A stretch of DNA of 64,000 bases from a bacterium (GCA_021786295.1 JAJYNO010000009.1:35977-99976); one strand, 5' to 3'. Shown: positions 1 through 23,754, counted from the first letter of the stretch. Notes: generated by a model from the letters alone, not told the origin. Made by a program: numbers and translations.

Positions 1-228
1 AGGGAGGCCTTCGGGCGGCTGGCCGGCTTCGAGGTCCGCTTCTCCGAGAAGGCCTACTGCTCCGACAACGCGGCCATGGTGGCGCTCTGCGCGCTGCGCA
101 GGCTGGAGGCGGGCCGTTTCGCCAACAGCCTCAAGGTCGCCCCGGAGCTTTCCGATCCGGGCTGGAAAGGGGCGGCGCTCCGGGGCCCGCGGGCCGGGAA
201 ACATTATAGTAACAACCGCGCGCTATAA
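1..228 (+). CDS. tsaD: tRNA N6-adenosine threonylcarbamoyltransferase TsaD, 3' end only
   Basis: Frame 1 reads REAFGRLAGFEVRFSEKAYCSDNAAMVALCAL..., matching the TsaD/Kae1 C-terminal C(T/S)DNAAM(I/V)A motif. Stop TAA at 226-228; the 5' part lies outside the window. Confidence 0.85.
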   Translation, partial: REAFGRLAGFEVRFSEKAYCSDNAAMVALCALRRLEAGRFANSLKVAPELSDPGWKGAALRGPRAGKHYSNNRAL

Positions 229-229
229 A
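198..229 (+). promoter_or_regulatory. Direct-repeat activator box plus -10 element (GAAAC-N6-GTAAC-N10-TATAAA)
   Basis: GAAAC 198-202 and GTAAC 209-213 (11-bp period), then TATAAA 224-229. The same geometry recurs at 4356, 11745, 19436 and 23723. Confidence 0.6.
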
Positions 230-236
230 TCTTAAG

Positions 237-1418
237 ATGCTCATCTGGCTGCTTTCGGACTACGACCACAGGAAACACCTGGCCTTCAAGAGCCTGCTGG
301 GCCGTTTTTCCTCCGCCTTCCCCGAGACGCGGGCCGAGTTCTCCGTGAAGAGCCGCCGCAGCATGTGGGAGAGCCTGTTCGCCCACCTGCGCGACCCCAA
401 GCGCAACCCGATGGCCGACGTGGTAGAGATCCCGCAGAACTGGACGGAGCTCTTCTCCCGGCTCGGCATGCTGTCCGAGCTGGCCTCGGAGGTCGGGCCG
501 CTGGAACAGCGCCGTTACCCGGATTTCATCCTGAAGGAACTGTGCCGGCACGACGAGTCCCGCGCCTGGTCGGCGCCGTGGTGGCTGGAGGCCCCGGCCC
601 TCTTCTACCGGCCGCAGGCGGTCAGGGGGGGCGTGGACGCCCCGGCGGAACAGCTGGCCACCTGGGAGGGCTTCAGGGCCGCCCTGGACAAGGTGCGGGC
701 GCCTTCCCGCCGCGGGAACTTCCGCGCGCTTTCCGTGCCAGGCTCCTCCGGCTCGGTCTCGGTCTCCGACGTGCTGCCGCGCATGTGGGGCAGGCGCGGC
801 GGCCTTTTTTCCGACGATTTCAACCGCGCCACTTTCAACCGCGACGAGACCATCGGCGGAGTGGAGGACTGGCTGGAGCTGGCGGTCAGCGGCAAGATAG
901 AGCTCTTCAGCGCCGACCGCTTCGAGAACGGCCCGAGGCCGGCCGAGGACTGCGCCTTCATGATCTCGTCGCGCAAGCTGCCCGGGGCCGCGCGCGCCGG
1001 CCTGAGGATGCTCCCGTACCCGGGCTATCCTTCCGGCGGCGGCCTGGCGCTGGTCTACAACCTGGCCGTCTCCTCCTCCAGCCGCGGGCACGCCGCCGCC
1101 TCGGCCTTCGTCTCCTGGGCCATGGAGCCTCGCAACGCCTCCTATTTCGCCGAGAGCTTCGGGGTGTTCCCCTGCCTGAGGACGGTTTTCGAGGACCGCC
1201 TGCGCGAGGAGCGCGAGGCGGAGGTGTACCGGAGGCTTTTTTCCGCCCCGGAGCTGATGCCCAACATCATGGTCTACCCTACCGCGGAGCTGCTGCTGGA
1301 GCGGGCGCTGTGGAACCTGTCGCTGAAGATAGCGCGCAGGGACTACGACCGCGAGGACCTGCTGAGGGAGCTGATCATGGCGCAGGGAGAGGCCGACTAT
1401 CTGCTGTCGCTGTATTGA
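237..1418 (+). CDS. Extracellular solute-binding-protein fold (family 1-like) lacking a signal peptide
   Basis: 393 aa. Segments such as 'FPETRAEFSV', 'DVVEIPQNWTELFSRLGMLSEL', 'SAPWWLEAPALFY' and 'AASAFVSWA' resemble sugar-type SBPs. No N-terminal h-region or lipobox, and no ABC permease or ATPase nearby. Confidence 0.65.
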   Translation: MLIWLLSDYDHRKHLAFKSLLGRFSSAFPETRAEFSVKSRRSMWESLFAHLRDPKRNPMADVVEIPQNWTELFSRLGMLSELASEVGPLEQRRYPDFILKELCRHDESRAWSAPWWLEAPALFYRPQAVRGGVDAPAEQLATWEGFRAALDKVRAPSRRGNFRALSVPGSSGSVSVSDVLPRMWGRRGGLFSDDFNRATFNRDETIGGVEDWLELAVSGKIELFSADRFENGPRPAEDCAFMISSRKLPGAARAGLRMLPYPGYPSGGGLALVYNLAVSSSSRGHAAASAFVSWAMEPRNASYFAESFGVFPCLRTVFEDRLREEREAEVYRRLFSAPELMPNIMVYPTAELLLERALWNLSLKIARRDYDREDLLRELIMAQGEADYLLSLY

Positions 1419-1422
1419 GACG

Positions 1423-2943
1423 ATGAAGAAGAACGGGAAGGAACTTTTCGCGCAGGCCGCCGGGGCCGTCCTCGAGGGCCGCGGGGCCTTCATGGCCGCT
1501 TCGCTGGAGGCCCTGGCCGAAAGGTTCTCGCTGGACGCCGCCTCCTATTACGAGTACGACGAGAAGACCGGGCTGCTGCGCCTGCTGCTGCGCCACGCTT
1601 CCGGGGTCTCGTTCGAGCACGAGGAGAACCTGCGCCCGCTGCCGGGGTCCGCCGCCGCCCGCGCGCTGGAGGGCCTGCAGGCGGTGTCCGCCAAGAGCCC
1701 GGCCGGCTGCTTCCTGTACTCCCCTTTCAGGCTCGACCACTGCGACCCGGCCGGAGGGCGCGGCGTGGTGCCGTGCTTCGGTCTGGTGCGCATGGAGCGC
1801 TCCCCGCGCCGCCGGCGCTTCTCCCCAGCGGAGGCGGCCAGGGCCGACGCGTACCTGCGCTCCTACCTGCGCGACTATTACAAGGCGGAGCTGCTCTCGC
1901 TGCACCGCAAATACGACAAGAACGTAGCCGCGATCACGGAGCTGACCGAGGTCTTCGCCACCGCGCTTCGCGTCAGCGACAGCTTCCGCCATATCCTCTC
2001 CGGCATCCAGACCTACTTCGGCTTCGACCGGGTGCGGCTGTACCTGATAGACGAAAAGAACCGCAAGCTGAAAGGCGAGCTCTCCGCCGACATCCGCGGC
2101 CAGGTCAAGAGCATCTCCTACGAGGAGATCCCGCTCGAGCCGGGGGCGCACCGCTTCGCCGACATCGTGCTGGGCAAGAGCTCCGGCGCGTTCATGGAGC
2201 GCTACAAGGACTGCGTGCTGTACATGCCCCTCGCCGTGCAGGGCGTGACGATAGGCCTGCTCATCGTCGACAACCTGCTCAGCCAGCAGAGGATAGAGCC
2301 GGAGGAACTGACGATGCTGAAGTCCTTCGGCGGCCAGATAGCGCTGGCCGTGGACAACTCCCGCCTGTTCGACAAGGTGGAGGAACTGTCCCTCTACGAC
2401 GAGCTGACGAAGCTGCCGCTGCGCCGTTATTTCAACCAGCGCTTCCAGGAGGAGTTCTACCGCGCGGAGCGTTTCAAGCAGCCGCTGGCCCTCGTCTGGG
2501 CGGACATAGACTATTTCAAAGAGGTCAACGACACCTACGGCCACCAGATAGGCGACAAGGTGCTGCGCGAGACCGGCCGCGTGATACTCGCCAACCTGCG
2601 CAAGATAGACTTCCCGTGCCGCTACGGCGGCGACGAGATCATCATCCTGCTGCCGCAGGCCACCGGCGAGGAGGCCAGGCGGCTGGCGGAGCGCCTCAGC
2701 CAGGAGCTCTCCGAACTGCGCATCCCGGTGCCCTTCTCCAAGGCGAAAGAGCTGCGCGTGACGCTCTCCATCGGCGTCTCCACCTTCCCCCAGGACGCCT
2801 CCTCTACGGACGCGCTGCTCGAGAAGGCGGACGACGCGCTCTACTGGGTGAAATCGCACGGCCGCGCCGGCATCGCGCTCTATTCCGACATGGCGGCGGA
2901 GAAGGAAAAGGCCGCCGGAGGAGGGGCTCATGCGCCCGTCTGA
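1423..2943 (+). CDS. GAF-domain diguanylate cyclase (GGDEI active site)
   Basis: GAF-like segments, 'YDELTKLPLRRYF', 'DIDYFKEVNDTYGHQIGDKVL', RxxD I-site (RKID), 'RYGGDEI', 'TLSIGV', 'ADDALYWVKSHGR'. Confidence 0.93.
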   Translation: MKKNGKELFAQAAGAVLEGRGAFMAASLEALAERFSLDAASYYEYDEKTGLLRLLLRHASGVSFEHEENLRPLPGSAAARALEGLQAVSAKSPAGCFLYSPFRLDHCDPAGGRGVVPCFGLVRMERSPRRRRFSPAEAARADAYLRSYLRDYYKAELLSLHRKYDKNVAAITELTEVFATALRVSDSFRHILSGIQTYFGFDRVRLYLIDEKNRKLKGELSADIRGQVKSISYEEIPLEPGAHRFADIVLGKSSGAFMERYKDCVLYMPLAVQGVTIGLLIVDNLLSQQRIEPEELTMLKSFGGQIALAVDNSRLFDKVEELSLYDELTKLPLRRYFNQRFQEEFYRAERFKQPLALVWADIDYFKEVNDTYGHQIGDKVLRETGRVILANLRKIDFPCRYGGDEIIILLPQATGEEARRLAERLSQELSELRIPVPFSKAKELRVTLSIGVSTFPQDASSTDALLEKADDALYWVKSHGRAGIALYSDMAAEKEKAAGGGAHAPV

Positions 2944-4345
2944 GGCCGGCGCCGCCGGGCCGCGCCGCGCGCGGCTCCCGGAAGGCCGGGCTCTCCTGCT
3001 GGGGGCGCTGCTGCTGGCCGCGCTGCCCGGCGTCTCGCTGGCGGTGTTCGAGGACCTTCCCGCCGGGGCCAGGCAGCTGGGGCTGGGGGGGCAGTCGGCC
3101 GCGCTGGAGGACGCTCTTTCCTTCTACGCCAACCCGGCCCTGCCGGGCTCCCGGCGCAAGTTCGAGACCGGCGGCCAGTTCCTCTCCTCCGACAGGACCA
3201 CGCAGGGGCCGGAGTCGGTCACGGCCTACGGGGCCTGGGCGGTAGTGCCGCGCATGGCCTACGGCAGGCTGGGCACCCTCACGCTGGGCTGGCTCGAGGA
3301 CGAGTACGGCGGCAGCCTGAAGCAGAAGACGCTCTCCCTGGGCTGGGGCACCTGGAACCTGATACGCGGCGATTCCGGGATGCTTGACTTCGGCGCCAAC
3401 TTCAAGGTGCTCAGCGCCTCCGACGGGCAGGACTCGGCCTCCGGCGCGGCGCTGGACCTCGGCGCGGCCTTCCGTCCCGACGGCAACCATACGCTCGGCT
3501 TCTCGATACTGAACGTCAACGCCCCGGCTTTCAACGTGGGCTCCCGCAAGGACCACGCCCCGCGCGTGGCGCGGCTGGCCGTCTCGGAGCGGCGGGAGGA
3601 CTATACGATCTCGCTGGACCTGGCGGCCCGCTCCGCCTCGGACGGCTACGGGGGCAACGTCAGTTTCGACCCGGGCGTGGAGCACGTCTGGCGTACCGAG
3701 CGCTCCGGGGCGTTCTATTCCCGGGCCGGCCTCAACCTGGCCGAGCGCGCCTCGGCGCTGAGCGCCGGCATCGGCTGGAAGCACGGCCCCTCCGAGCTCT
3801 CGTACGGCGTCGCGGTGCCGCTGACCGCGCCCGTCTCGGCGGCGCATTCGCTTACGCTTTCGCTGCGCTTCGGGGACCGCGACCTGGAGGACGACTACGA
3901 ACGCCTGATAAAGCGGGAGATAAAGTACCGCGAGGACCTGGTGGAGGCCCTGGACGAGTCCACGAAACGGGAGGGGATGCTGCGCGACGAGCTGGCCTCG
4001 ATGAAGGCGGAGATAGATTCCCTCAGCGCGCAGCTGCGCGGGGAGCAGGCGCAGAAGGCCAGCGTTACCAGCGAGAAGGAGCGCCTGGCCGCGATAGTGC
4101 GCAAGCAGCAGGCCGCCGAGGCCGAGCTCCAGGCGCTGGCCGCCAAGCGCAGGGCGGACAAGCTGAACCAGCTGCGCTACGGTTTCAGCCTGGACTGGGA
4201 GGCCTACCTCAAGCTGAAAGGGGGGGGCGCGCCGCCCGACGTGCTGAAGGCCTCGCTGCAGCGCATGATAAGCCAGTACCAGGATTCCGGGATCGACATC
4301 AGCCGGGCGACCGTGGAGCTGCAGGGGCTGCTGTCCGGCAAATAG
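2930..4345 (+). CDS. PorV/PorQ (UPF0164)-like outer-membrane beta-barrel with C-terminal coiled coil
   Basis: Signal peptide, family motif 'GARQLGLGGQSAALEDALSFYANPA', amphipathic beta strands ending 'LTLSLRFG', then ~150 aa of charged heptad helix. Confidence 0.7.
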   Translation: MRPSEAGAAGPRRARLPEGRALLLGALLLAALPGVSLAVFEDLPAGARQLGLGGQSAALEDALSFYANPALPGSRRKFETGGQFLSSDRTTQGPESVTAYGAWAVVPRMAYGRLGTLTLGWLEDEYGGSLKQKTLSLGWGTWNLIRGDSGMLDFGANFKVLSASDGQDSASGAALDLGAAFRPDGNHTLGFSILNVNAPAFNVGSRKDHAPRVARLAVSERREDYTISLDLAARSASDGYGGNVSFDPGVEHVWRTERSGAFYSRAGLNLAERASALSAGIGWKHGPSELSYGVAVPLTAPVSAAHSLTLSLRFGDRDLEDDYERLIKREIKYREDLVEALDESTKREGMLRDELASMKAEIDSLSAQLRGEQAQKASVTSEKERLAAIVRKQQAAEAELQALAAKRRADKLNQLRYGFSLDWEAYLKLKGGGAPPDVLKASLQRMISQYQDSGIDISRATVELQGLLSGK

Positions 4346-4355: not shown

Positions 4356-4409
4356 GTAACATTTTTTTAACAATTGTTTCACCGGCGGTTAATACCGCGC
4401 TGGTAAACT
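4356..4409 (+). promoter_or_regulatory. Four 11-bp-periodic half-sites plus -10 (TAAACT)
   Basis: GTAAC 4356, TTAAC 4367, TTCAC 4378, TTAAT 4389, then 10 nt and TAAACT 4404-4409, in an AT-rich intergenic gap. Confidence 0.65.
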
Positions 4410-4468: not shown

Positions 4469-6211
4469 ATGGAAAGCAAGGATATAGACAGGCACATAAG
4501 CGAGCTGTGGAAGCGGGTGGCGGGCGGGGACTACGCCCCGGAGCCTCCCGCCGCGCTGCCCCCCGACGTGCGCCAGTCCAACATGGAGACCATGCGCCTG
4601 CTGCGCGACAATTTCTCGAAGGCCGAAGAAGAGTGGAAGGCGCTGCTGGCGGCGAAGGATTCCCAGCTGCGCGACCTCGCCGCCCAGCTGGAGGAGACCA
4701 GGGCCCACCTTTCCGAACTGAAGCAGCATTACCAGGAGGCCCGCGAGCGGGCGCTCGGCGAGGAGATGTCCGTCGCCGTCAACCTGGAGGAGTCCAGGAA
4801 GGTGCTGGAGGCGCAGAAGAAGAACCACGCGCGCGAGATCTCCCTGCTCAAGGAACTGCTGGAGCGCACGAAGACGGAGATCCTGGGCCTGCAGGAGCGC
4901 GTGGAGTCGCTGCGCTCCGAGCGCGACGCGCTGCGCGGCAGGGGCGTCTCGCTCTCCTCCGAGAGGGACGACCTGGCCGACGCGAAGGCCGGCCTCGAGG
5001 CCAAGCTGGCGGATTCCAAGGAGGCCGTGGAGAAGACCCTGGCCGAGCTGCTGGCCGAGCGCAAGAACAGGCGCGACGACCAGGCCAGGATGAAGGAGAT
5101 GGAGGCGAGGATAAAGGAGCTCACCGGGAACCTGGCCGCGGCCAAGGCCGACTGGGGCGCCGAGAGGACGCAGTGGCGCGAGATGTGGGACAGGGAGCGC
5201 TCCGTCTGGGAGACGCACCGCCAGGAGTTCGCCGTCTGGGAGGAGCGCCTGCGCTCCGAGCGCGAGGCCTGGACCCAGAAGATGCGCGAACAGGAGGCCG
5301 CCGGCGTCGAGAGCGCGGCCGGCCTGGCCAAGGTCCTGAAGGAGAGCAGCCAGTGGTCCGAGAAGGTGACCCAGGTGCTCAAGCTCTACGCGCTCAAGGG
5401 CGTGGAGCTGCCCAGCGTCTTCGTCTCGCCCTCCCCGGACGCCGCTTTCGTGCGCGCCCGCAGGAACGTTTCCCGCGCGCTGGCCATGGCGCTGGCCGGC
5501 CTGCTGCTGATGTCCGTGGCGGCCTGGCGGGCCTACGTCTGGCGCTCCGAGGCCCATTACAAGCTGCTGTCCTCCTCCCCGCTGGACCTGACCAGCCCCT
5601 CCGGCCTGGCCGTCGACAAGGACGGCCTCTGGCTGGCCGACTGGAACAAGGGCCTCTCGCTCATGGACCCCCGCGACCTTTCCACGCTGCGCGTGCTGCC
5701 GCCGCCGGCCGGGACGCCGATGCGCCCCGGCGCGCTCACCGATACCGGCTCCGGGCTGTGGACGCTGGACATGGCCCAGCTGCGCTACGCGAGGCAGAGC
5801 TACAGGGACGGCTCCATAACGGAGTCGGTCAAGACGCCGGGCCCCGCGCCGCAGGGCGCTGCCTGGGACGGCTACAGTCTGTGGGCCTTCGACGCTTCCT
5901 CCGGGCTGCTGTACAAATACGCGCTGGACCCTTCCGCCGGGGCTTCGGCCACCTACAGGCTGGAAGGGGTGAAGAGCGTGGCCTGCATGCAGTGGGTGGA
6001 CGGCCAGCTCTGGGTTCTGGACAGCTCCAACGTGCTGCGCCGCTACGCGCTGAAGGACGGAGCCTTCAGGGAGCTCTCCAGCCAGGTCTTCGGCAGGGAG
6101 AAGGCGGCCGCTTTCTGGGCCGACGACGGCACGCTCTGGAGCGTGGAAAAGAGCGGCGACCTGACCGGGGGGTACGAGCTGAAGAAGTATTCGCTGAAAG
6201 TGTACAGGTGA
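4469..6211 (+). CDS. Membrane protein: long cytoplasmic coiled coil, one TM helix, C-terminal beta-propeller-like domain
   Basis: ~300 aa E/K/R-rich coiled coil, TM 'ALAMALAGLLLMSVAAW', and repeated 'P.G.a.dg..LW..D' blades (NHL/glutaminyl-cyclase-like). Confidence 0.75.
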   Translation: MESKDIDRHISELWKRVAGGDYAPEPPAALPPDVRQSNMETMRLLRDNFSKAEEEWKALLAAKDSQLRDLAAQLEETRAHLSELKQHYQEARERALGEEMSVAVNLEESRKVLEAQKKNHAREISLLKELLERTKTEILGLQERVESLRSERDALRGRGVSLSSERDDLADAKAGLEAKLADSKEAVEKTLAELLAERKNRRDDQARMKEMEARIKELTGNLAAAKADWGAERTQWREMWDRERSVWETHRQEFAVWEERLRSEREAWTQKMREQEAAGVESAAGLAKVLKESSQWSEKVTQVLKLYALKGVELPSVFVSPSPDAAFVRARRNVSRALAMALAGLLLMSVAAWRAYVWRSEAHYKLLSSSPLDLTSPSGLAVDKDGLWLADWNKGLSLMDPRDLSTLRVLPPPAGTPMRPGALTDTGSGLWTLDMAQLRYARQSYRDGSITESVKTPGPAPQGAAWDGYSLWAFDASSGLLYKYALDPSAGASATYRLEGVKSVACMQWVDGQLWVLDSSNVLRRYALKDGAFRELSSQVFGREKAAAFWADDGTLWSVEKSGDLTGGYELKKYSLKVYR

Positions 6212-6233
6212 GGCGGGGGCCCCGGAATCTTTA

Positions 6234-6263
6234 TTGATTTCATTATGCCGAAAATGGCAGAAT
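6234..6263 (+). promoter_or_regulatory. Putative sigma70 promoter TTGATT-N18-CAGAAT (extended TG)
   Basis: AT-rich intergenic region upstream of the FlgD-repeat gene. Confidence 0.35.
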
Positions 6264-6335
6264 TGGACAGTGATTTTTTGCCGGGAGGCGGCCGCGCCGC
6301 GCTCTTCGGCCTTATTTTTGGCACAGAGAGAGATT

Positions 6336-9300
6336 ATGCTTAAAAGACCGGGGCTGGTTCTGGGGGCTATCGCGCTGCTTATGGGGCTGACCGCCTCTCT
6401 TTCCGCCCAGCAACTGTACATCAGCGCCATCAAGGCCGTCTACAAAGAGGGCGGCAACGGCTACTGCAACGACGTCAACGGCGATCTTACCGCCAGTGAT
6501 TACGACGTCTCCTACGTGACGAGCGGCGGCAACCCCGGGCAGGATTCCTCGCGCATAGAGTTCGAGCGCCCCACGCCCAAGGTCAACGACATCGGCTCTG
6601 GCGGCTCCTGCCCCGGCGGCTACTGCTACCCCAACAGCTGCCTCGCCCTCTGCGCCCAGCTGGTCTGCGTCAGCACCGACGGCTATTTCGGCATAGACCA
6701 GCTTACATTCGAGATCTTCAAGTTCGGCGCCGGCTCCAACCCGCTGGACCCGGCCTCCACCCCGCCCATACGCACCATCTCGATGTACAACATCGGCATG
6801 TGCAACAGCGATAATAACGCGCAGTACTATGTGAATCCGGGCGGAACGAGCGACCCCACCTATTACTACTGCACCCCGTGGGACGGCTATTACAACCTCA
6901 ACGGCATATTCGGCAAGACCAACGGGCAGTTCGGCTTCAGGGCCACGGTCAAGACCAACCAGGTCAGCCAGACCGCGGGCAACATCTCCATAGAGCAGAC
7001 CGCGGCCTTCCCGGGGCAGAGCCAGTTCCCGATACAGGTGGACGTGACCGACATTCACGCCGTGCGCTCGAGCCCGACGGTGGTCGGCAAGATAACGGGC
7101 GTGGCGGCTCAGCCATACAACATCTTGTACCGGCTTTCCAAGGATTCCATAGTCAACATGAACGTCTACGACGCCAACACCCCCGGGAAGCTGCCCGAGG
7201 TGCGGCATCTGCTGGTAAACGCCCCGCGCGTTGGAGAGGGCATACCGGACGGCACGCTCACCAACGGCGACTTCTGGGACGGCCGCGACGACAGCGGCAA
7301 CTTCGTGCCGGCAGGCAATTATATAACGCAGATAGACGCCAAAACCAACGGCATGTGGACCGGTACCACCGCCACCGAGGACCTGGCCTGGCCGGCCACG
7401 GTGCAGATGTCGCTGGACCCGCTGCAGGTGACCGACGTGGCCGTCAAGCCGCTGGGCGCCTCCTCCACCGACATGGCGGTCATCAGCTACATGCTTACCG
7501 AGGACGCCACCGTCTACGTGGACATCTACCCTCCTGGCACGACTTTCGACAACGTTAACGGCTATCCTCCGACGGTGGGCGGCAAGGTCTGCACCGGCGC
7601 CCCCGGAGACGCGTGCCTTAGACATTTTGTCGACCAGAAGACCCGGCGCGCCACCGCCACCACCCTCTGGGACGGCCGCGACAGCGCCGGCAGCCCGGTG
7701 TGCGACGGCAACTACGTCTACGCCATCTACGCCGAGATGCCCAGCAGCCACATAGACCCGAACACTAATCTGCCCATAGGCAACGTTACCACGAGCAAGA
7801 CGCAGATAGGCACGGTGCCGGTGGCCAGGGGCAGCGTGGTCGCGCTGATGATGCCCTCCTCCACGGTGCTGGACTCCACGCCGACGGTGGCGGGCCTGGA
7901 CCCGTTCTATTTCAGGTACACCCCGGCGCGCGACGCGCAGGTCAGCCTCAACATACTGGACATGGACGGAACGACCGTGGTGCGCCATCTGGTGCAGAAC
8001 GAGGAGCGTTTCGCCAATTTCTCCAACAAGGAACAGTGGGACGGCAAGGACGACAACGGCCTGTACGTCTCCAGCGGCTCCTACCTGGCGGAGCTCGTGA
8101 CCACGGACCCGTTCCAGTGCTCTCAACAGAAGGTCTCCACCGTCACGGCGGTGATCCCGGTGGACATGTGGCGCACGGTGAACGTGCAGAGCACGCCGCT
8201 GCTGGGCGGCACCTCCGACATGGCCACCGTGGGCTTCGAGCTGTCGCAGCCGATGTACATCAAGCTCAACGTCTATCCTCCCACCACCGTCATAAACCCG
8301 TCGGTATGGCCGCCCGTAGTGGGCGCCACGCCCGTGTACTCGGTGGAGGGCATGCGGCCGGGCCGCTTCAGGATCACCGAGTACTGGGACGGCCGCGACA
8401 CCGCCGGGAACATGGTGGAGGACGGCCGCTACCCGTTCACGCTGGTGACCTACAGTACCGGCGCGGCGCAGACGATGTATTCGACTGACCGGACGTACGG
8501 CTACGTGGACGTGACCAGGGGTAAGATCGTCTTCACCGACTTCGAGGTTATCCCGACGATTCCGCAGATGTACAACTCCTCCGACACCGTCAAGTTGCCT
8601 CCCTACGAGATAGATTATTCGCTGTCCAGGCAGTCCAGGGTAAAGATAGACATACTGGACGCCAACGGCGGCTCGACCAACGGGCAGACGGTGGCCACGG
8701 TTGTCACCGAGGCCAACGGGGTGCGCGACGGGGGGCTGCTGTACAAGGACTTCTGGGACGGCCATTATTCCACGGTGGACGGCAACGGCAACATCATAGA
8801 CGGGGACTTCGTGCCGCAGGGGTCTTACAACGTGCGGATAACGGCCAAGGACATAGACATAGACCCGAACCTGGTCTCGATGGCGACGGTGCAGATGACG
8901 ATAGACGTGGACCCGCTCAGGATCTACGACGTGTCGATAGTGCCGCTGACGCTGGACAATTCGGCGGTGGTCTCCTACCAGGTCTCCGAGCCCATGAAGG
9001 TGGTGGTGAAGGTCTACAAGCCCGGGGCCTCGGTGCCGCCGGGAGACCAGGACCCGCCGTCGGGCCTGGTGAAGCGCATCATCGGCGTCAGGCCGGCGCG
9101 CACGCAGATCTCCGAGTACTGGGACGGCACCGATCTGACTCTCTCCAAGGTGCCCGACGGGAACTACGGCTTCAAGATCTACGCTTCCACGGTCACTACC
9201 GCCATAAGCTCGATAGACGGCAGCGCCACGTCCGCGGCGCTGCTGGCGCCGGACGTCATAGTCTCCAACATCCCCGTGACCAGGGGCGGGACGGCGGACC

Positions 9301-9662: not shown

Positions 9663-9692
9663 GGACGGCCGGGCCTAACCGAGGATAAGGGT

Positions 9693-10670: not shown

Positions 10671-10678
10671 GAGGCCGC

Positions 10679-10888: not shown

Positions 10889-10930
10889 GCCGCGGGGACA
10901 AGTTCTGAAATCCAGTACGGAGGATAGACA

Positions 10931-11125: not shown

Positions 11126-11134
11126 GGGCCTGTT

Positions 11135-11167
11135 CCGGGCCGCGGCGTCTAAAGCGCCGCGGCCCGG
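11135..11167 (+). terminator. 13-bp GC stem-loop after flp (mRNA stabiliser or partial terminator)
   Basis: ccgggccgcggcg (11135-11147) / cgccgcggcccgg (11155-11167). No immediate U-tract. Confidence 0.55.
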
Positions 11168-12550: not shown

Positions 12551-12562
12551 GGACATAATATT

Positions 12563-13285: not shown

Positions 13286-13358
13286 CCCCCCGGCGCCGGA
13301 GGCGCGGGAGGCGGCCCGGCCTGAGCCGGGACCAGGGAGCGGTCGGATAGCACACGGT

Positions 13359-17161: not shown

Positions 17162-18054
17162 CGGACAAGCTCACACAGTTCTTTCTCATAGCCGTTTCCA
17201 TCATCGGCTCCTTCTCCGTCTTCGCGGCGGTGCAGCGCTTCTTCGCCCCGCGCGAGGAGGACCGCTCCCCGATAGGCGACATCAGCGACATGGAGGGCAA
17301 GAGCATCTCCGCCTTCGCCAAGCTGGAGAACAGCAAGAACATGTGGGACAAGCTGGACCTGTTCTTCGCCAGGAAACTCGGCTTCGAGAGGAAGCTGGAA
17401 CAGACCTACGTCCTGCTGGGCAGCCCTTCCGGCACGAATCCCCTCAAGATGCTGCACCTCAAGCTGCTGGTCGGGGGCCTGCTGCCGGTAGTGTTCTACG
17501 TGCTGACAGGCTCGGTCTTCACGCTGGTCTTCGCGCCGCTGGGCTTCATGATCCCCGACGCCGGCATCTACGCGGGCCGCATCCGCCGCCGCCAGGAGGA
17601 CATCATCCACAACTTCCCCACGTTCGTGGACCTGGCCGCGCTGATGATAGAGTCCGGCCTCGACTACATGACGGCCTTCGACCGCATCGTGAAGATCGCC
17701 CCGGTCAAGACCGGGCTGGAGCTCGAGATCGAGAAGACCATAAACGAGGTGCAGCTGGGCTATTCCCGCCGCGACGCGCTGCGCCGCCTGGCGGACCGCA
17801 CCGGCCTGCAGGAGGTGCGCTCCTTCGTCGGCCTTATCGTGCAGTCGGACGAGCTGGGCACCAGCCTCGTGGACCTGCTGCGCAACTATTCGGCCGACAT
17901 GCGCTTCCGCCGCCTGAACAAGGCCGAGAAGCTGGCCGCGCAGGCCTCGACGAAGATGCTGATCCCGCTGTTCATCTTCATCTTTCCGACCGTGTTCATC
18001 CTGATGCTTTCTCCGATGGTCAGCGGACTGATAAAGGGCGGTATGCCTTTCTGA
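17158..18054 (+). CDS. tadC: TadC (T2SSF domain)
   Basis: ATGA overlap with tadB; 'FPTFVDLAALMIESGL', 'QSDELGTSLVDLLR', 'AEKLAAQASTKMLIPLFIFIFP'. Confidence 0.92.
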   Translation: MTDKLTQFFLIAVSIIGSFSVFAAVQRFFAPREEDRSPIGDISDMEGKSISAFAKLENSKNMWDKLDLFFARKLGFERKLEQTYVLLGSPSGTNPLKMLHLKLLVGGLLPVVFYVLTGSVFTLVFAPLGFMIPDAGIYAGRIRRRQEDIIHNFPTFVDLAALMIESGLDYMTAFDRIVKIAPVKTGLELEIEKTINEVQLGYSRRDALRRLADRTGLQEVRSFVGLIVQSDELGTSLVDLLRNYSADMRFRRLNKAEKLAAQASTKMLIPLFIFIFPTVFILMLSPMVSGLIKGGMPF

Positions 18055-18065
18055 AGAGGCTCTAT

Positions 18066-19418
18066 ATGGCGAACATCATTCCCTGGCTGGTCCTTTCCGC
18101 GGCGCTGTGCGCCCCCGCCGCCGCGCAGCAGCAGGCGCCGCAGCCGCAGCAGCAGGCGCCGCAGCCGCCGCGCAGCGAGGAGTCGCTGTTCCTGGACCTG
18201 CAGAAGACGGGGCTGGACTCGATGAGCGACGTGGAGGAGAAGAAGAAGTTCCTTGAGACCGTGAAGCTGGAGAAGGCGAAGATCCAGGACGCGATGCTGG
18301 AGGATATCTACGAGAACGCCTTCGACTATTACCGCAACGGCAAGTACGAGGACGCCAAGGACCTGGCGACGAAGATCCTTTCCATAGACCCGAACTTCAA
18401 GGACGCGCAGATGCTGCTGGACGCCTCCAACCAGCTGCGCGGGAGCGCGCGCCCGGCCATGAGCGAGAGGCTGATGATAGAGGACCGCTTCAAGGACGCT
18501 CTCTCCTACTACAACGAGGGCCGTATAATCGAGGCCCACGACAAGATGGAGGAGGTCGTCAAGCTGTCCCCCAACAACATCAAGGCCAAGTACTGGCTTT
18601 CGCGGATGAACGAGGACCTGAACGACTACTACTTCCAGCGGGGCATGGACGCCTACAAGCAGAACGACCTGAAGAACGCGCTGGACAACCTTTACAGCGC
18701 CCTGCTGATCAAGCCCCGGGACGGCCGGACGGTGGAGTGGGTGTCCCGCGTGGAGGACGAACTGCGCCAGCAGAAGGCCAACGACAGGCTGAAAGAGGCG
18801 CTCGGGTTCTACGCCCAGGGCGACCTCGCGCAGGCCTACGCCGGCCTGCAGCGGGCCCTCGAGGTTCAGCCCGGCGACTCCAAGGCCGCCAAGCTGCTGG
18901 CCGAGGTGAAGCAGGAGATCGAGAACGGTTTCCTCGACTCCGGCAGGAAACTTTACGGGCAGCGCAGGTACACCGACGCGATAGCCGAATGGGACAAGGC
19001 CAAGCCGTACGCCGACGACATGTCCTATATAGACAAGCTGATCAAGCGCGCCAACCAGCAGATGAAGCTGGAGGCCGCCGAGAAGAAGCGCCGCGCCGAG
19101 GAGGCCGCCCGCCGCGCCAAGGAGGAGGCCGACCGCAGGGCCGCCGAGGAGGCCGCCAGGGAGAAGGCCGCCGAGGAGGCCAAGCAGGCCGGCATGGCCC
19201 TGCAGCAGCAGGCGGAGGTACAGAAGCCGCCCGCCGTAACCCAGGAGGACAAGGTCGCCGCCAGGCAGCACTACCTGAACGGCCTGAAGTTCTTCCAGGA
19301 CTCCAATTACGACAAGGCCAAGGACGAGTGGACCATCGCCAAGCAGCTGGACCCGTCCAATCCCGACGTGCAGGCCGGCCTGAAGCGGATAGAGCAGATA
19401 CTGGCCGGCGGCCAGTAG
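18066..19418 (+). CDS. Secreted tetratricopeptide-repeat protein (TadD-like position)
   Basis: Start ATG 18066 with a signal peptide, multiple TPR motifs, an EAAR-rich helix and a final TPR. Confidence 0.85.
   Translation: MANIIPWLVLSAALCAPAAAQQQAPQPQQQAPQPPRSEESLFLDLQKTGLDSMSDVEEKKKFLETVKLEKAKIQDAMLEDIYENAFDYYRNGKYEDAKDLATKILSIDPNFKDAQMLLDASNQLRGSARPAMSERLMIEDRFKDALSYYNEGRIIEAHDKMEEVVKLSPNNIKAKYWLSRMNEDLNDYYFQRGMDAYKQNDLKNALDNLYSALLIKPRDGRTVEWVSRVEDELRQQKANDRLKEALGFYAQGDLAQAYAGLQRALEVQPGDSKAAKLLAEVKQEIENGFLDSGRKLYGQRRYTDAIAEWDKAKPYADDMSYIDKLIKRANQQMKLEAAEKKRRAEEAARRAKEEADRRAAEEAAREKAAEEAKQAGMALQQQAEVQKPPAVTQEDKVAARQHYLNGLKFFQDSNYDKAKDEWTIAKQLDPSNPDVQAGLKRIEQILAGGQ
18126..18167 (+). repeat. 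21-nt tandem repeat x2 (QQQAPQP) in the TPR protein linker
   Basis: cagcagcaggcgccgcagccg occurs twice in tandem. Confidence 0.9.
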
Positions 19419-19435: not shown

Positions 19436-19478
19436 TTAACATTTAGGCAACACTCCGTTAACAGCGGTTTTGTAAACT
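19436..19478 (+). promoter_or_regulatory. 11-bp-periodic half-sites plus -10 (TAAACT)
   Basis: TTAAC 19436, GCAAC 19447, TTAAC 19458, then 10 nt and TAAACT 19473-19478. Confidence 0.65.
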
Positions 19479-19527: not shown

Positions 19528-20643
19528 ATGCGGCTGACCGCAAAATGGCTTATATGGTTCGTCGGGATAGGCATCTACGTGATGGTCCTTGGCGGCGTCT
19601 TCTATTACAACCTCTTCAAGTGGACGTTCGACGAGAAGCTGAAGACGGACGTGGTGGACAAGATCAAGACCTACGCGCCCACGATGCGCACCGGGCTGCT
19701 GAACAGCCCGGACGCCATCACTTTCGAGGAATACGACATCATGACCGAGCTCTCCAAGGACGAGCGGATCACCTCGCTGCTCTACCTGGACCGCATGGGC
19801 AGGGTGCGCTGGCACAAGGAAGCGCGCTTCATCGGCATGGGCTGGGACCAGCTGCAGAAGGAGGTTCCGCCGGCTACCGACGCGATCGCCCAGGCCTACC
19901 TGTCCAAGATGGTCAAGGTCCGCCAGGTCAGCGGCGAGCCGTTCTACGAGATCGCCATCCCGTTCTCCGTGCGGGGCGACATCATAGGCATAATAGACCT
20001 GCTGGTGTCGCGGGCCGGGGCAGAGGTGCTGATAGGCTCGGCGATGAGGAAGTACGTCTTCGGCGCAATAGGAGTGCTGTTCCTGCTGGGGCTGCCGCTG
20101 TACTTCTTCTTCCACCATTACGTCATCTCCCCGATGGAGGTGCTGCGCGAGAGCATAGAGGGCGTCTCGCTCAAGAACTTCGAGCTGCGCTTCCCGCTCC
20201 GGTCGGACGAGCTCGGGGACCTGGCGGCCTCGATAAACAGGCTGATGGGCAAGATGAAGACGGAGATAGAGGGGATCTCGAACAAGGACCGCACCTACAA
20301 GGAGGCCGAGCAGCGCTGGTGGCGCTCGCTGCTGAACATCATAGTCCCGGCCACCAGCTACGTGATAGTCGTGGACGAGAACAACAGCATCCTGTACGCC
20401 AATTTCGAGCTGGGGCAGGGCCTGGAGGCGAAGAACATCCACCTGCTGGACGTGGTGGACAGCCAGCAGCAGACCCTGCTGCGCCTGGTCGGGCAGGCCT
20501 TCGAGATGCCGGATCAGATCGTGGAGGGAGAGACCGTCTTCAAGGGGCAGAATTTCAACGTCAAGGTCCTGCACGTGGGCCAGACCGCCGACACCAACCG
20601 CACGCTGATACTTTTTCATCCCAAGGCCGGGATAGCTCTGTAG
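19528..20643 (+). CDS. Membrane sensor protein TM-periplasmic-TM-HAMP-PAS without output domain
   Basis: Two TMs, HAMP ('ISPMEVLRE...RSDELGDLAASINRL'), PAS-like end ('VIVVDENNSILYAN'). No H-box or GGDEF motif. Confidence 0.75.
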   Translation: MRLTAKWLIWFVGIGIYVMVLGGVFYYNLFKWTFDEKLKTDVVDKIKTYAPTMRTGLLNSPDAITFEEYDIMTELSKDERITSLLYLDRMGRVRWHKEARFIGMGWDQLQKEVPPATDAIAQAYLSKMVKVRQVSGEPFYEIAIPFSVRGDIIGIIDLLVSRAGAEVLIGSAMRKYVFGAIGVLFLLGLPLYFFFHHYVISPMEVLRESIEGVSLKNFELRFPLRSDELGDLAASINRLMGKMKTEIEGISNKDRTYKEAEQRWWRSLLNIIVPATSYVIVVDENNSILYANFELGQGLEAKNIHLLDVVDSQQQTLLRLVGQAFEMPDQIVEGETVFKGQNFNVKVLHVGQTADTNRTLILFHPKAGIAL

Positions 20644-20655
20644 CGGGCCCCGGGC

Positions 20656-20684
20656 TTGTCGTTCCCGTCCAATAATTATATATT
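20656..20684 (+). promoter_or_regulatory. Putative sigma70 promoter TTGTCG-N17-TATATT
   Basis: Correct 17-bp spacing in an AT-rich gap before the small membrane protein and regulator genes. Confidence 0.5.
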
Positions 20685-20736
20685 GTATAACCGAGCGCGC
20701 CGCGGCGCGCCGCTGTCGTTCATTTTTGGAGGGAAC

Positions 20737-21033
20737 ATGAAACTCGAAGTGCGCAATATCAGCGTTAGCTCCCTTGTCGGTTCGTCCCTGCCGCTGGTGA
20801 TCTTCGTCCTGGCGCTGCTCGGCGGCGCGGTGTCCTACCTGGTCATCCCCAATCCGCAGCTGGCCACGATGAGCGCGGCCCAGAGGCTGCTCAGCGTCGG
20901 CCTGTACGGCCTGCTCTACGTCGTGATAGCCACCGCCCTGCTGGTGTTCACGGCTTTCGTGTACAACATCCTGACGGAGGTGCTGGGCCTGCACGGCGTC
21001 GTTTTGGACATAGAGGAGATATCCCAGGATTGA
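20737..21033 (+). CDS. Small two-TM membrane protein (DUF3566-like)
   Basis: GGAGGG RBS, ATG 20737; 'MKLEVRNISVSSL...AFVYNILTEVLGLHGVVLDIEE'. Confidence 0.7.
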   Translation: MKLEVRNISVSSLVGSSLPLVIFVLALLGGAVSYLVIPNPQLATMSAAQRLLSVGLYGLLYVVIATALLVFTAFVYNILTEVLGLHGVVLDIEEISQD

Positions 21034-21065: not shown

Positions 21066-21827
21066 GTGAAAATAAACATTATCTTCGCTTCCAAGGACCT
21101 CTCCAGGGCCTCCCTGATGCTCGAGATGCTGTCGCGCCAGGGCTATTCCGTGGCCACCGCCAGCCGCGCCCGCGAGGTCATGGGGATGCTGGCTGAGAAG
21201 TCCTTCGACATGGTCATGATCGGACAGAACCTGGCGGACGAGGAGGGGCTGACCTTCCTGAAGAACCTGCGGGCCAAGAACAAGAACATCCCGGTCATCG
21301 CGGTCCTTGAATCCCCCGACACCTACCTGGACCACATGCCGTCCGGGCTGAGCGCCGAGACGCTGATGCCGCACGGTCCCTCCGGCCGCGAGGCGCCGAA
21401 GATCTCGTACAAGCTCGCCTTCTTCCAGCTCGGCGCCGACGAGGTGCTGGCCTACAGCCAGGACCTGCACGAGAGCGTGGCCCGCATCCGGGCCGTCGTG
21501 CGCCGTACCGTCAGCGTTCAGGCCGACGAGGTCCTGAAGATGAACGAGATAGAGCTGAACATGTCCAGCTACACCGTACGCATAGCGAACAGGGAGATCA
21601 CGGTGACGGCCAAGGAGTTCGACCTGCTCTACGTCTTCCTGAGCTCCCCCAACCGCGTGCTGTCGAGGCCCTACCTGATAGAGCGCGTGTGGGGCTACAA
21701 CTATTTCGGTTCGCCGCGCACGGTGGACGTGCACGTGCGCCGTCTGCGCTCCAAGATGGGCAAGGCCGCGCGCTACGTCCATACGGTGCCCTGCGTCGGC
21801 TACAAGCTGGTGCCGGGCACCAAGTAG
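21066..21827 (+). CDS. Atypical OmpR/PhoB-family response regulator (pseudo-receiver + winged helix)
   Basis: Likely GTG start 21066. Intact wHTH 'TAKEFDLL...VLSRPYLIERVWG...RTVDVHVRRLRSK...HTVPCVGY'. The receiver lacks the phospho-Asp and the conserved Lys. Confidence 0.88.
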   Translation: MKINIIFASKDLSRASLMLEMLSRQGYSVATASRAREVMGMLAEKSFDMVMIGQNLADEEGLTFLKNLRAKNKNIPVIAVLESPDTYLDHMPSGLSAETLMPHGPSGREAPKISYKLAFFQLGADEVLAYSQDLHESVARIRAVVRRTVSVQADEVLKMNEIELNMSSYTVRIANREITVTAKEFDLLYVFLSSPNRVLSRPYLIERVWGYNYFGSPRTVDVHVRRLRSKMGKAARYVHTVPCVGYKLVPGTK

Positions 21828-21846: not shown

Positions 21847-22221
21847 ATGGCACACAAGATACTCGTTATCGACGACGACACCCACCTGCGCGAGAGCCTG
21901 GCCGAGGTGCTGGACATGGAGGGGTTCGAGACGCTGGAGGCCGGCAACGCCAAGTCTGGCATCGCCTCCGCCAAGAAGCAGAATCCCGACGTGGTGATCA
22001 TGGACATCCAGCTGCCGGACTCCTCCGGCTTCCAGATCTGCCAGGAGCTGCGCAAGCATTCCAGGGATTTCATCCTGATAATGATGACGGGCCGCTTCCT
22101 GTCCGCCGAGGAGAAGACCCAGGGGCTGAGCCTCGGCGCGGACGAGTACATCACGAAGCCGTTCGACATCAGGGAGCTTTCTATCCGCATACGCCAGCTG
22201 CTCGGCAGAAAGGGGAAATGA
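21847..22221 (+). CDS. Single-domain response regulator (receiver only)
   Basis: 'ILVIDDD', 'VVIMDIQLP', 'GADEYITKPF'. Confidence 0.92.
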   Translation: MAHKILVIDDDTHLRESLAEVLDMEGFETLEAGNAKSGIASAKKQNPDVVIMDIQLPDSSGFQICQELRKHSRDFILIMMTGRFLSAEEKTQGLSLGADEYITKPFDIRELSIRIRQLLGRKGK

Positions 22222-22222: not shown

Positions 22223-23659
22223 ATGAGAAAATACGCATTGCTGCTCGCTTCGCTTCTTTTGGCCTCCCAGGCGCCAGCCGCGGTCCGGCGCGCCTCGCCG
22301 GCCGAAGGCGGCCGGATGACGCTGTACCTGGAGGCCATGGACGGCCAGGGCTGGCAGCTCTTCTTCAAGGCCGACGCCGTTAGGCGCGCGCTGCCCGCCT
22401 CCACGCTGCGCGTCCTGCCGCTGGTCACGAAGGGGACCGACGGCAAGTTCGCCTCGCGCCGCGGGCCGCAGGAGCTGGAGGAGGCCACGCGGCTCGCCGT
22501 GCTGGCGGCGGACTATCCGTCCAGGCTTTTGGCCTATCTCAACGGCCGCTCCCTCAGCCCCGACTCGGACGGCTGGCGCGACGCCGCCCTTTACGCCGGG
22601 ATCAACCCGGACGAGCTGGCGAAGAAGGCGGCCGCCGAGGGCCAGGCCGATCTGGCGAAGGCCTACGCCGCCTCGTCGGCCGCGGGGGCCGAAAGCTCCG
22701 AGCTGCTGCTGGACGGCAAGCCTTACGGCGGCTCCTCGAGGCTGATGGGGCTTTACGAGGCCGTCAACTCCTCGCTGCCGCCCGCCAGGCGCGTGAAGCC
22801 GCCGAAGGGCTATATCCCGAAGCCGCCGCCTCCGCCGCCGGGGTTCTGGGTCGTGCTCAGCTCCGGCATCCGGGAGAACCCGCAGCTGGTCGGCGTGTTC
22901 AGCCGCTACTTCGACGGGATAAAGGCCGACGTGCTCGACTACAACTCTCCGCAGCGCGCCAAGCTGTTCCCCGCGCTGCGCTACGTGCCGTCCTACATCC
23001 TGCAGGCAACCCCCGAGGCCAAAAAACAGCTGAGCCGGGAGATCCAGGCCGGGCTTTTCAGCGAGACCTCCGGGTACCTGGTCTTCGAGGACCGCCAGCA
23101 GCGCGGCGTATACGCGGACATGCCGGAGAAGAAGGATACGCTGGACGTCTACGTGATGAGCCATTGCCCCTACGGCGTCATGGCCGAGAACTCGCTGCTG
23201 CAGGCGGAAAAGGACAAGCTGCTGCCCGAGGGCCTTAAGTGGACCATCCACTACATCGGCGACGCGTCCAAGGGCGCCGACGGCCAGTGGACCTTCTCCA
23301 GCCTGCACGGGGACGCCGAATGGCGGGAGGACGCCAGGCAGCTCTATATAGCCGAGAAGTACCCCGGCAAGTTCCACGACTACCTGGCGGAGCGGGACAA
23401 GAACATAAACGGGGACTGGAAGGAGGCCGCCAAGGCCGCCGGGATAGACGCGGCCGACGTGGAGGCCAGTTCCGAGGCGGCCAAGGCCCTGCTGGCGGCC
23501 GATTTCGCCGCTTCCGGCGACATGGGCATGACCACCTCGCCGTCCTTCCTGGTGAACGGCCGGGAATTCATGGTGGGGCTCGGGGCGCTGATGAAGACGC
23601 CCGGCTTCGAAAAAGTGCCGGCGCCGGGCCAGCCGCCGGCCGGCGGCTGCAACAAGTAA
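22223..23659 (+). CDS. Exported thioredoxin/DsbA-like protein with duplicated domain (SHCPYG motif)
   Basis: Signal peptide and two similar halves ('F.S..G..E..E..R'). The C-half has 'YVMSHCPYG' and the cis-Pro motif 'TTSPSFLVNG'. Confidence 0.65.
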   Translation: MRKYALLLASLLLASQAPAAVRRASPAEGGRMTLYLEAMDGQGWQLFFKADAVRRALPASTLRVLPLVTKGTDGKFASRRGPQELEEATRLAVLAADYPSRLLAYLNGRSLSPDSDGWRDAALYAGINPDELAKKAAAEGQADLAKAYAASSAAGAESSELLLDGKPYGGSSRLMGLYEAVNSSLPPARRVKPPKGYIPKPPPPPPGFWVVLSSGIRENPQLVGVFSRYFDGIKADVLDYNSPQRAKLFPALRYVPSYILQATPEAKKQLSREIQAGLFSETSGYLVFEDRQQRGVYADMPEKKDTLDVYVMSHCPYGVMAENSLLQAEKDKLLPEGLKWTIHYIGDASKGADGQWTFSSLHGDAEWREDARQLYIAEKYPGKFHDYLAERDKNINGDWKEAAKAAGIDAADVEASSEAAKALLAADFAASGDMGMTTSPSFLVNGREFMVGLGALMKTPGFEKVPAPGQPPAGGCNK

Positions 23660-23670
23660 GCGCGCCAGCG

Positions 23671-23705
23671 GAACGCGCCGGCCCCGCGGCCGGCGCGTTC
23701 TTTTT
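23671..23705 (+). terminator. Intrinsic terminator
   Basis: gaacgcgccggcc-ccgc-ggccggcgcgttc followed by ttttt. Confidence 0.85.
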
Positions 23706-23722
23706 CCATATAGCTTCTCCCC

Positions 23723-23754
23723 GAAACAATTCCGTAACAGGCCTTTGTGATAAT
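23723..23754 (+). promoter_or_regulatory. GAAAC-N6-GTAAC-N10-GATAAT box upstream of the histidine kinase
   Basis: gaaacaattccgtaaca parallels gaaacattatagtaaca at 198, with the same offset to a -10-like hexamer. Confidence 0.55.

Follow-up and report, generated by a model that had tools for sequence, protein, structure and literature searches.

A conserved tandem 11-bp array upstream of six operons in an Elusimicrobiota bacterium and a predicted aspartate-less OmpR-family activator

We describe a promoter element that recurs upstream of six operons in a 64 kb stretch of DNA from an uncultured Elusimicrobiota bacterium (GCA_021786295.1 JAJYNO010000009.1:35977-99976; the whole 64,000-nt stretch is hereafter called the window). 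The element consists of short half-sites repeated at an 11-bp period in a single orientation and followed, at a fixed distance, by a -10-like hexamer. It is almost certainly a genuine, conserved array of regulator-binding sites, whichever protein binds it, and the OmpR/PhoB-family protein encoded at nt 21066–21827 is probably the activator acting at these sites. The outcome is a precise operator, a candidate protein and a putative six-operon regulon linking Tad/Flp pili, cyclic di-GMP (c-di-GMP) synthesis and two-component signalling, in a phylum that is almost entirely uncultured and for which no regulator-operator pair is described in the literature searched. In that search, with most subscription journals outside its reach, neither the protein nor the motif was found to have been described for Elusimicrobiota; tandem operators of the OmpR family are as such well known.

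Six operons share an array in fixed register with the -10 hexamer

The window has a G+C content of about 65% and its plausible genes all lie on the plus strand, as do the six sites. Site 1 (nt 198–229) is composed of GAAAC (nt 198–202) and GTAAC (nt 209–213) followed, after a 10-nt spacer, by the hexamer TATAAA (nt 224–229); its operon (nt 237–4345) comprises a 393-aa open reading frame (ORF), a GAF-GGDEF cyclase and a 471-aa ORF, the ATG of the first ORF (nt 237) being 7 nt past the hexamer. Site 2 (nt 4356–4409) has four units in 11-bp register, of which the distal pair, GTAAC (nt 4356) and TTAAC (nt 4367), is perfect and the proximal pair, TTCAC (nt 4378) and TTAAT (nt 4389), is degenerate, with TAAACT at nt 4404–4409; the operon that follows (nt 4469–11719) carries a 580-aa ORF, a FlgD_ig/CHU_C protein, a PorV/Q-like protein, two Flp-like genes and TadE. 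In site 3 (nt 11745–11787) three identical TTAAC units (nt 11745, 11756 and 11767) precede GAGAAT (nt 11782–11787) and the operon cpaB-secretin-TadZ/CpaF-TadB-TadC/TPR (nt 11795–19418), the cpaB ATG (nt 11795) being again 7 nt past the hexamer. By their position, the two start codons at nt 237 and nt 11795 may belong to leaderless mRNAs.

Site 4 (nt 19436–19478), composed of TTAAC (nt 19436), GCAAC (nt 19447), TTAAC (nt 19458) and the hexamer TAAACT (nt 19473–19478), heads the operon of the candidate regulator itself, which codes for a membrane protein with a weak HAMP match (nt 19528–20643), a 125-aa protein (nt 20656–21033), the regulator (nt 21066–21827), a CheY-like protein (nt 21847–22221) and a 478-aa protein (nt 22223–23659). 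Site 5 (nt 23723–23754; GAAAC at nt 23723, GTAAC at nt 23734 and GATAAT at nt 23749–23754) is preceded by a terminator with a 14-bp stem (nt 23670–23701) and followed by a dCache histidine kinase (nt 23784–25685), a hybrid kinase (nt 25791–26975) and a LuxR-type regulator (nt 27001–27675). Site 6 (nt 27737–27768; GCAAC at nt 27737, GAAAC at nt 27748 and TATACT at nt 27763–27768) lies downstream of a terminator-like hairpin (nt 27705–27718) and upstream of a Flp-like pilin (nt 27840–28055), a 386-aa protein (nt 28076–29236) and a TadE-like protein (nt 29238–29822). The hairpins found before sites 5 and 6 support the separation of the corresponding transcription units.

An earlier note on this DNA had reported five such promoters, with (G/T)(A/T)AAC half-sites and a -10-like hexamer beginning 15 nt after the start of the last one. 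Direct reading of the sequence agreed with the position of all five sites and hexamers, and the 15-nt distance holds in five out of five. The half-site formula, on the other hand, describes 11 of the 14 boxes listed, TTCAC (nt 4378), TTAAT (nt 4389) and GCAAC (nt 19447) falling outside it, and the count of five promoters overlooked site 6, which came to light when the intergenic stretches were listed and has the same spacing as the other sites.

Two further observations concern the surroundings of these sites. After site 4, two long ORFs (nt 19528–20643 and nt 19545–20675) overlap in different frames; the second was rejected as a gene, since the conserved ATGCGGCT start, a membrane-like N-terminus and the weak HAMP match point to nt 19528–20643 as the real one, and the frame of nt 19545–20675 still gives 33–87% tblastn matches because the DNA is conserved. 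Just past site 6, a second promoter-like site (nt 27768–27796) was observed, consisting of TTGAAG, 17 nt and TGC-TATAAC, whose -35 overlaps the TATACT of site 6; similar extended -10 sequences, TGCTATAAC/TGCTATACT, are found near nt 31600 and nt 34188.

The array exceeds chance expectation in the window

The strict pair of half-sites, defined as KWAAC-N6-KWAAC, is found five times in the 64 kb with both strands scanned, always on the plus strand and in intergenic DNA, against 0.21 matches expected, and none of 100 shuffles of the window reaches five. The earlier note had proposed a comparison with shuffled intergenic DNA, and here the motif proved to be above chance: the strict pair is present in 4 of the 13 intergenic stretches (1538 nt) of the window, against a mean of 0.0375 after dinucleotide shuffling, with 0 of 2000 shuffles reaching 4, and is absent from the reverse strand of the same 13 stretches. 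A looser pattern that includes the -10 occurs in 5 of the 13 stretches against 0.004, a result of lesser weight since the pattern was written after seeing the sites.

A matrix learned on other species (see below) scores 37.9 bits at nt 23723, 25.0 at nt 27737, 24.2 at nt 19447, 22.2 at nt 11756 and 15.0 at nt 198, and 13.4 bits at nt 19436, which is site 4 in a register shifted by one unit. Beyond these five sites and the shifted register, nothing above 8 bits was found on either strand of the window, and in 100 block shuffles the best score was 12.0 bits, with a mean of 0.08 hits above 8 bits. An Rfam scan of the promoters gave no match to any RNA family.

The array is conserved before the same operons across Elusimicrobiota

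Homology searches with the 21066–21827 protein retrieved named relatives that belong to Elusimicrobia/Elusimicrobiota in every case. An alignment of 23 orthologues of the regulator was used to search genome contigs, which led to 80 loci from different species (regulator identity 49–98%, at most 10 kb per flank, 1.24 Mb in total). Gene order is kept across these loci and runs TadE, cpaB, secretin, TadZ/CpaF, TadB, TadC/TPR, p371, p125, regulator, CheY, p478, kinase, hybrid kinase, LuxR-type regulator, Flp gene, p386, p194 and FtsH; in particular, the order p371-p125-regulator-CheY is kept in nearly all 80. These loci cover the counterparts of sites 3–6, sites 1 and 2 being assessed within the window alone. 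A non-redundant set of 37 loci (regulator DNA identity below 85%), with 223 mapped gaps of at least 40 nt, was used for spacing and motif discovery.

Of the 223 gaps, 23 hold a pair of AAC at a distance of 11 nt, where 4.8 would be expected (z 8.8), and the counts peak again at 22 nt, while GTT, representing the opposite strand, gives no signal at either 11 or 22. Pairs of the WAAY half-site likewise peak at 11 (44 against 8.5) and 22, with additional peaks at 16 and 27 that correspond to the half-site to -10 distances. Spacings were counted per sequence, since a tandem repeat in locus L061 gave false peaks at 7, 9, 14 and 16 nt; this short GAAC/TAAC-rich repeat lies upstream of the p371 orthologue (approximately nt 8200–8320 of that locus), in place of the usual array. 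Between the final 5-mer and a TAnnnT hexamer the most frequent spacer is 10 nt long (25 hexamers), with a secondary peak at 12 because TAATAT overlaps within GATAATAT.

An expectation-maximisation motif search (width 34, 30 random starting windows), in which the earlier consensus was not used, converged on the same element, the eight best solutions agreeing on one motif, GtAAtAtTT..GtAACA...tTtTggtAtAATAT. This motif comprises a pair of G/T-N-A-A-C/T-A units at an 11-bp distance, a 9-nt interval and a TAtAAT-like -10, and its matrix shows A/T-rich positions after the distal unit. It occupies the gaps of p371 (14/18), the histidine kinase (24/28), flp3 (10/14) and cpaB (5/5), and none of those of the regulator (0/22), CheY (0/16), hybrid kinase (0/21), p478 (0/7), p194 (0/9), FtsH (0/6), TadB (0/7), TadZ/CpaF (0/10) and TadC (0/4); stray occurrences were found for p125 (1/17), the LuxR-type regulator (2/14), p386 (1/15), p419 (1/2) and secretin (1/8).

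The strand preference is equally marked in the full set of 80 loci, where the strict pair has 97 occurrences on the gene strand against 9 on the opposite one, clustered at the counterparts of sites 3–6. At 12 bits the matrix gives 193 hits on the gene strand against 10 on the other; 172 of the 193 precede the same four genes, and 15 are unassigned and come mostly from very AT-rich loci. When the 67 loci with at least 50% G+C are taken, the figures become 159 and 3. Among loci with enough upstream DNA, more than 12 bits are reached by 64 of 72 kinase promoters, 43 of 57 for p371, 38 of 43 for flp3 and 25 of 31 for cpaB. Conservation of the array before the kinase, p371, flp3 and cpaB operons, another check that the earlier note had suggested, is thus apparent in the relatives.

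This four-operon conservation spans genomes from 27% to 66% GC, and the element is retained in genomes of 27–40% G+C despite unrelated flanking DNA. The number of units also appears characteristic of the promoter, being three in 22 of 25 cpaB hits and two in most kinase and Flp promoters. The start codon, by comparison, follows the hexamer by anything from 0 to 286 nt; in one clade, the ATG of cpaB has a ribosome-binding site of its own and is some 20 nt more distant from the array and its TAAACT, and the spacing between unit and hexamer is unchanged. In the most distant clade (regulator 49–53% identical) the full element, with a TATAGT -10, stands before CheY in three of nine loci (L075, L078 and L080), where it overlaps the 3' end of the regulator gene. 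The kinase promoter of the Elusimicrobium minutum-like loci L068, L069 and L070 carries the element at 35.4, 25.5 and 12.2 bits, respectively.

The six promoters have a -10 and an array in place of a -35

The six -10 hexamers match TATAAT at four to five of six positions, and no TTGACA-like sequence was found 16–18 nt upstream of any of them, the position where a canonical sigma-70 promoter has its -35. Indeed, a scan of the window with the two-hexamer sigma-70 consensus detected none of the six promoters and did detect TTGACA-N16-TATACT at nt 34169–34196 (11 of 12 matches). Ordinary sigma-70 promoters are therefore in use in this organism, and the six would make up a class of their own that depends on an activator. 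The last unit of the array ends 10 nt before the -10 (counted on the 5-mer), inside the usual -35/-10 spacer, and the next unit upstream overlaps the -35 position. Two other readings of these sequences were tried and rejected: xTAACA as a -35 with a -10 located 17–18 nt downstream, where no hexamer is conserved in the six sites, and an extracytoplasmic function (ECF)-type promoter with an AAC core and a downstream element, as nothing is conserved 16–17 nt after the units.

The candidate regulator is an OmpR/PhoB-family protein with an altered receiver

The candidate binder (nt 21066–21827, plus strand) is a 253-aa protein of the OmpR/PhoB family made up of a receiver-like domain, an inserted loop (approximately residues 82–114) and a winged-helix domain, and its GTG start at nt 21066 is backed by the orthologues. 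The C-terminal part matches PF00486 (Trans_reg_C, E 5.3e-25), the DNA-binding domain typical of OmpR/PhoB proteins, and the N-terminal part shows the receiver fold through a partial match to PF00072 (3.2e-10, positions 12–76 of 111). With the full-length protein as query, 88 solved relatives were retrieved, all OmpR-family among the 60 matches listed. The predicted structure (predicted local distance difference test, pLDDT, 78.6; predicted template modelling score, pTM, 0.70) shows the receiver-like domain, a disordered insertion and the winged helix, with residues 1–80 in the alternating strand/helix layout of receivers at a pLDDT of about 90, and a fold search with this model returned full-length OmpR/PhoB regulators and receiver-domain structures, PrrA and MtrA first. 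No NCBIfam equivalog was reached (121.7 against 296.2 for PhoB TIGR02154, 95.9 against 471 for PhoB NF007546 and 78.7 against 350 bits for CtrA).

In an alignment with the window's three canonical receivers, the protein shows Gly in place of the acceptor Asp, ASKD at the acidic pair, loss of the Thr and Lys, and a 29-residue insertion. The acceptor position is Gly, Ser or Ala in 23 of 23 orthologues, so the protein is not a canonical phosphorylatable response regulator; judged from these residues and by the definitions given in a review, the regulator is an aspartate-less receiver protein. The same review describes the mechanisms that control aspartate-less OmpR-family proteins as still unclear.

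The winged-helix domain is nearly invariant in the 23 orthologues (54–92% identity), which matches the constancy of the DNA element. When this domain alone was used as query, the top three solved relatives were the GlnR entries 8hig, 8hml and 8hih (E 3e-21 to 3e-20), followed by RegX3 (1.4e-17) and PhoB (1.5e-16). Of the 12 residues listed as DNA contacts in S. erythraea GlnR, the regulator shares ten; the contact numbering was taken from the printed alignment and checked against Y137, T149, Y150 and K151.

The genomic context points in the same direction. Within 10 kb of the regulator in the E. minutum-like locus L069 are cell-wall and housekeeping neighbours, with no LuxR-type regulator and no Tad genes, and in the E. 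minutum group no DNA-binding protein other than the regulator remains next to a promoter with the motif, a neighbourhood that favours the OmpR-type protein as the binder without proving it. The earlier note had put this protein forward as the plausible common regulator, and it does stand as the best candidate, on the grounds of its own controlled operon, its nearly invariant domain and the E. minutum group, with its binding to the array still an inference.

A predicted activator-dependent mechanism and its alternatives

In the mechanism that we propose, the boxes would be tandem, same-orientation sites for a winged-helix activator, each corresponding to the hexamer G/T-N-A-A-C/T-A and present in two to four copies at an 11-bp period. 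Protomers of the OmpR-family protein encoded at nt 21066–21827 would bind them head to tail on one face of the helix, and the promoter-proximal protomers would replace the -35 contact and recruit RNA polymerase, as described for actinobacterial GlnR. Weaker proximal units might be filled cooperatively from stronger distal ones. The predicted regulon would include the GGDEF cyclase operon, three Tad/Flp pilus operons, the kinase/LuxR-regulator operon and the regulator's own operon, the last of which implies positive autoregulation. With the acceptor Asp and three other catalytic positions of the receiver lost, it is probably the amount of the protein, or its partner proteins, that determines activity, and not Asp phosphorylation. 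In this scheme we infer the identity of the binding protein, activation over repression and the transcription start sites.

A more speculative extension, which we regard as unlikely, is that of a split response regulator, with the aspartate-less receiver being switched by pairing with the adjacent phosphorylatable CheY-like protein (nt 21847–22221) or by the HAMP-like membrane protein heading the operon. If true, a kinase signal would reach a GlnR-type four-protomer complex without phosphorylation of the DNA-binding protein, and one conserved circuit would act as a phylum-wide master switch for Tad-pilus adhesion in Elusimicrobiota.

Several observations weigh against activation of six operons by the 21066–21827 protein or against parts of its support. 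With one mismatch allowed, the strict pair matches 16 times against 9.3 expected and 4 of 100 shuffles reach 16, the simple consensus alone being a weak detector. The matrix was trained on orthologues of sites 3–6, so that site 1 is its sole independent detection. Site 2 is the weakest of all, its proximal pair plus -10 scoring only 5.8 bits, and rests on two perfect distal units in register with two degenerate units and TAAACT; the cpaB hexamer GAGAAT overlaps GGAG, alternatively a ribosome-binding site. Many of the 80 loci are closely related to one another and, in the most distant clade, locus L072 has a half-site pair before p386 and the other five of nine loci show no element within the DNA examined (flanks of at most 10 kb). 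As for the protein, the fold search ranks the GlnR complex 36th, two of the GlnR contacts, both in the wing, are changed (R211 to P and N212 to C), and the recognition helix is a conserved feature of the entire OmpR family, hence the GlnR likeness does not fix specificity. To these must be added the points, given next, on which alternative explanations draw.

The protein might bind as proposed and act as a repressor, occupying the -35/-10 spacer and keeping the pilus and signalling operons off. The proximal unit does lie within the spacer, a frequent repressor position, and CtrA sites upstream of pilA can repress (PMC11264516); repression, however, explains neither the missing -35 nor the exact, conserved spacing to the -10, and GlnR activates from the same position (PMC10235972), so that we consider this arrangement improbable.

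Slightly less probable still is another OmpR-family regulator, from outside the window, as the binder of the array, with other targets for the 21066–21827 protein. The element and the gene of this protein occur together in all clades examined, also with the element inside or beside the regulator's own operon, and the DNA-binding domain of the protein is as invariant as the element, which speaks against such an outsider, even if the recognition helices of the OmpR family are alike and our view is limited to 64 kb and 10-kb flanks.

A binder belonging to another family is available in the cluster itself, namely the LuxR/NarL-type response regulator encoded at nt 27001–27675. In that case the dCache kinase would have this protein as its output, and the protein would in turn control the pilus operons. 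This second conserved DNA-binding regulator is encoded directly upstream of site 6, is 77–98% identical even in distant loci and has a canonical, intact receiver, and its place after two kinases would make for a simple signalling path. Tandem, same-orientation 11-bp units abutting the -10 are nonetheless the documented OmpR/PhoB mode, NarL-type proteins usually bind inverted repeats, and the kinase promoter of L068–L070 keeps the element with no LuxR-type orthologue within 10 kb, where only 29–33% receiver-level matches were found; a LuxR-type binder is, if anything, a shade less likely than an outside OmpR-family protein. Lastly, that RNA polymerase itself reads the boxes as part of the core promoter, by means of an alternative sigma factor or an upstream element particular to the lineage, as their fixed distance to the -10 and strictly uniform orientation could suggest, is very improbable, because two, three or four units at helical period are needed by no sigma factor, the -10 is of sigma-70 type with a canonical TTGACA-N16-TATACT in the same window, and the array is missing from the other intergenic regions of the window and loci.

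Other features of the window

The motif-bearing cluster is marked at its downstream end by a perfect 29-nt inverted repeat (nt 29820–29848 and nt 29906–29934, 57-nt loop), which runs exactly from the TadE-like stop to the FtsH ATG. In the operon of site 3, nt 13359–15575 encode a single 738-aa protein in which a CbiA/ParA-like (TadZ-type) N-terminal part is fused to a T2SSE (CpaF-type) ATPase, and this TadZ/CpaF fusion is matched over its whole length in many loci. In the operon of site 2, the stretch at nt 6234–10670 covers two genes, the first for a protein of 1142 aa that has a FlgD_ig and a CHU_C domain (the latter a type IX secretion signal) and the next for the PorV/PorQ-like protein, whose score of 72.8 bits is below the cut-off of 90.

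Downstream of the sigma-70 promoter at nt 34169–34196 lies a c-di-GMP-I riboswitch (RF01051, 55.7 bits, nt 34335–34413), which precedes a HEAT-repeat protein (nt 34549–35391) and a giant ORF of at least 9526 aa (nt 35423–64000) that runs off the window. The riboswitch links c-di-GMP, for which a cyclase is found in the proposed regulon, to a possible giant surface protein. The intergenic stretch at nt 31584–31698 carries the TGCTATAAC -10, approximately 60 nt and a run of eight T before the next gene; it has no Rfam match, and its predicted fold is no better than that of shuffles (z +1.75).

Comparison with known systems

Direct repeats in one orientation, with a period close to a helical turn, characterize OmpR/PhoB-type tandem operators, and the array described here has all of these features. 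The activation geometry of this family, invoked in the earlier note, is borne out by published work, PhoB binding two 11-bp tandem repeats and GlnR lying head to tail.

Among regulators with comparable receivers, ChxR of Chlamydia and HP1043 of Helicobacter are intrinsic dimers with unphosphorylated receiver domains, and ChxR binds direct repeats. The likeness goes no further, as the HP1043 structure 2hqr is a weak sequence and fold match (E 5.7e-8) and not a close relation, and the sites and regulons of the two proteins are different.

CtrA had been named in the earlier note as the parallel for the cpaB copy. Its consensus is TTAA-N7-TTAA, with several sites per pilin promoter (PMC11264516), and this sequence is literally contained in the TTAAC-N6-TTAAC of cpaB; CtrA is, moreover, an OmpR-family regulator of Tad-type pilin genes. 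The parallel amounts to this literal match: only the TTAAC copies fit the CtrA consensus, GAAAC, GTAAC and GCAAC do not, and CtrA is a phosphorylated protein of Alphaproteobacteria whose site overlaps the -35, whereas the last unit here is downstream of the -35 and the protein is from Elusimicrobiota, has a receiver without Asp and falls short of the CtrA equivalog score given above. The CtrA likeness is superficial.

The pho box of Escherichia coli is placed 10 bp before the -10, where it stands in for the -35. PhoB recognizes a pair of tandem 11-bp repeats, in each of which AT-rich minor-groove sequence flanks a 5-bp major-groove tract, and it interacts with sigma (PMC4447250). Tandem 11-bp repeats with AT-rich flanks are likewise found in our array, but the half-site of PhoB is TGTCA and not GTAAC, PhoB needs Asp phosphorylation, and the candidate protein does not reach the PhoB equivalog scores.

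The closer analogue is GlnR of actinobacteria, an orphan regulator of the OmpR/PhoB subfamily whose boxes contain an a site (gTnAc) and a b site (GaAAC), with GTAAC as the co-crystal consensus and 6 nt between sites; four protomers are bound head to tail, the proximal one downstream of the -35 touching the beta flap and sigma region 4, and GlnR acts independently of Asp phosphorylation (PMC10235972). The array shares with it the GTAAC/GaAAC half-site, the 6-nt gap, the 11-bp period and a proximal site downstream of the -35. The likeness extends to the number of sites (two to six for GlnR) and to promoters with a non-optimal -35 and a good -10. The promoter-proximal a2-b2 box of GlnR binds weakest and depends on the upstream boxes (PMC5826061), and site 2, with its degenerate proximal pair, offers a parallel to a weak proximal box filled with upstream help. 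There are, however, clear differences: the organism belongs to Elusimicrobiota and not to Actinobacteria, the targets are Tad/Flp pili, a cyclase and kinases instead of nitrogen metabolism, and the 21066–21827 protein has the 29-residue receiver insertion and the two changed wing residues. GlnR, in addition, keeps the conserved Asp and uses it for dimer contacts, whereas here it is lost; the protein is thus no GlnR orthologue, and the likeness is confined to the DNA-binding domain. The proposed mechanism would accordingly be GlnR-like with a protein that is not GlnR, which suggests that the GlnR mode, an activator protomer placed between -35 and -10, is not confined to actinobacteria, and would provide a natural case of a predicted aspartate-less OmpR-family activator.

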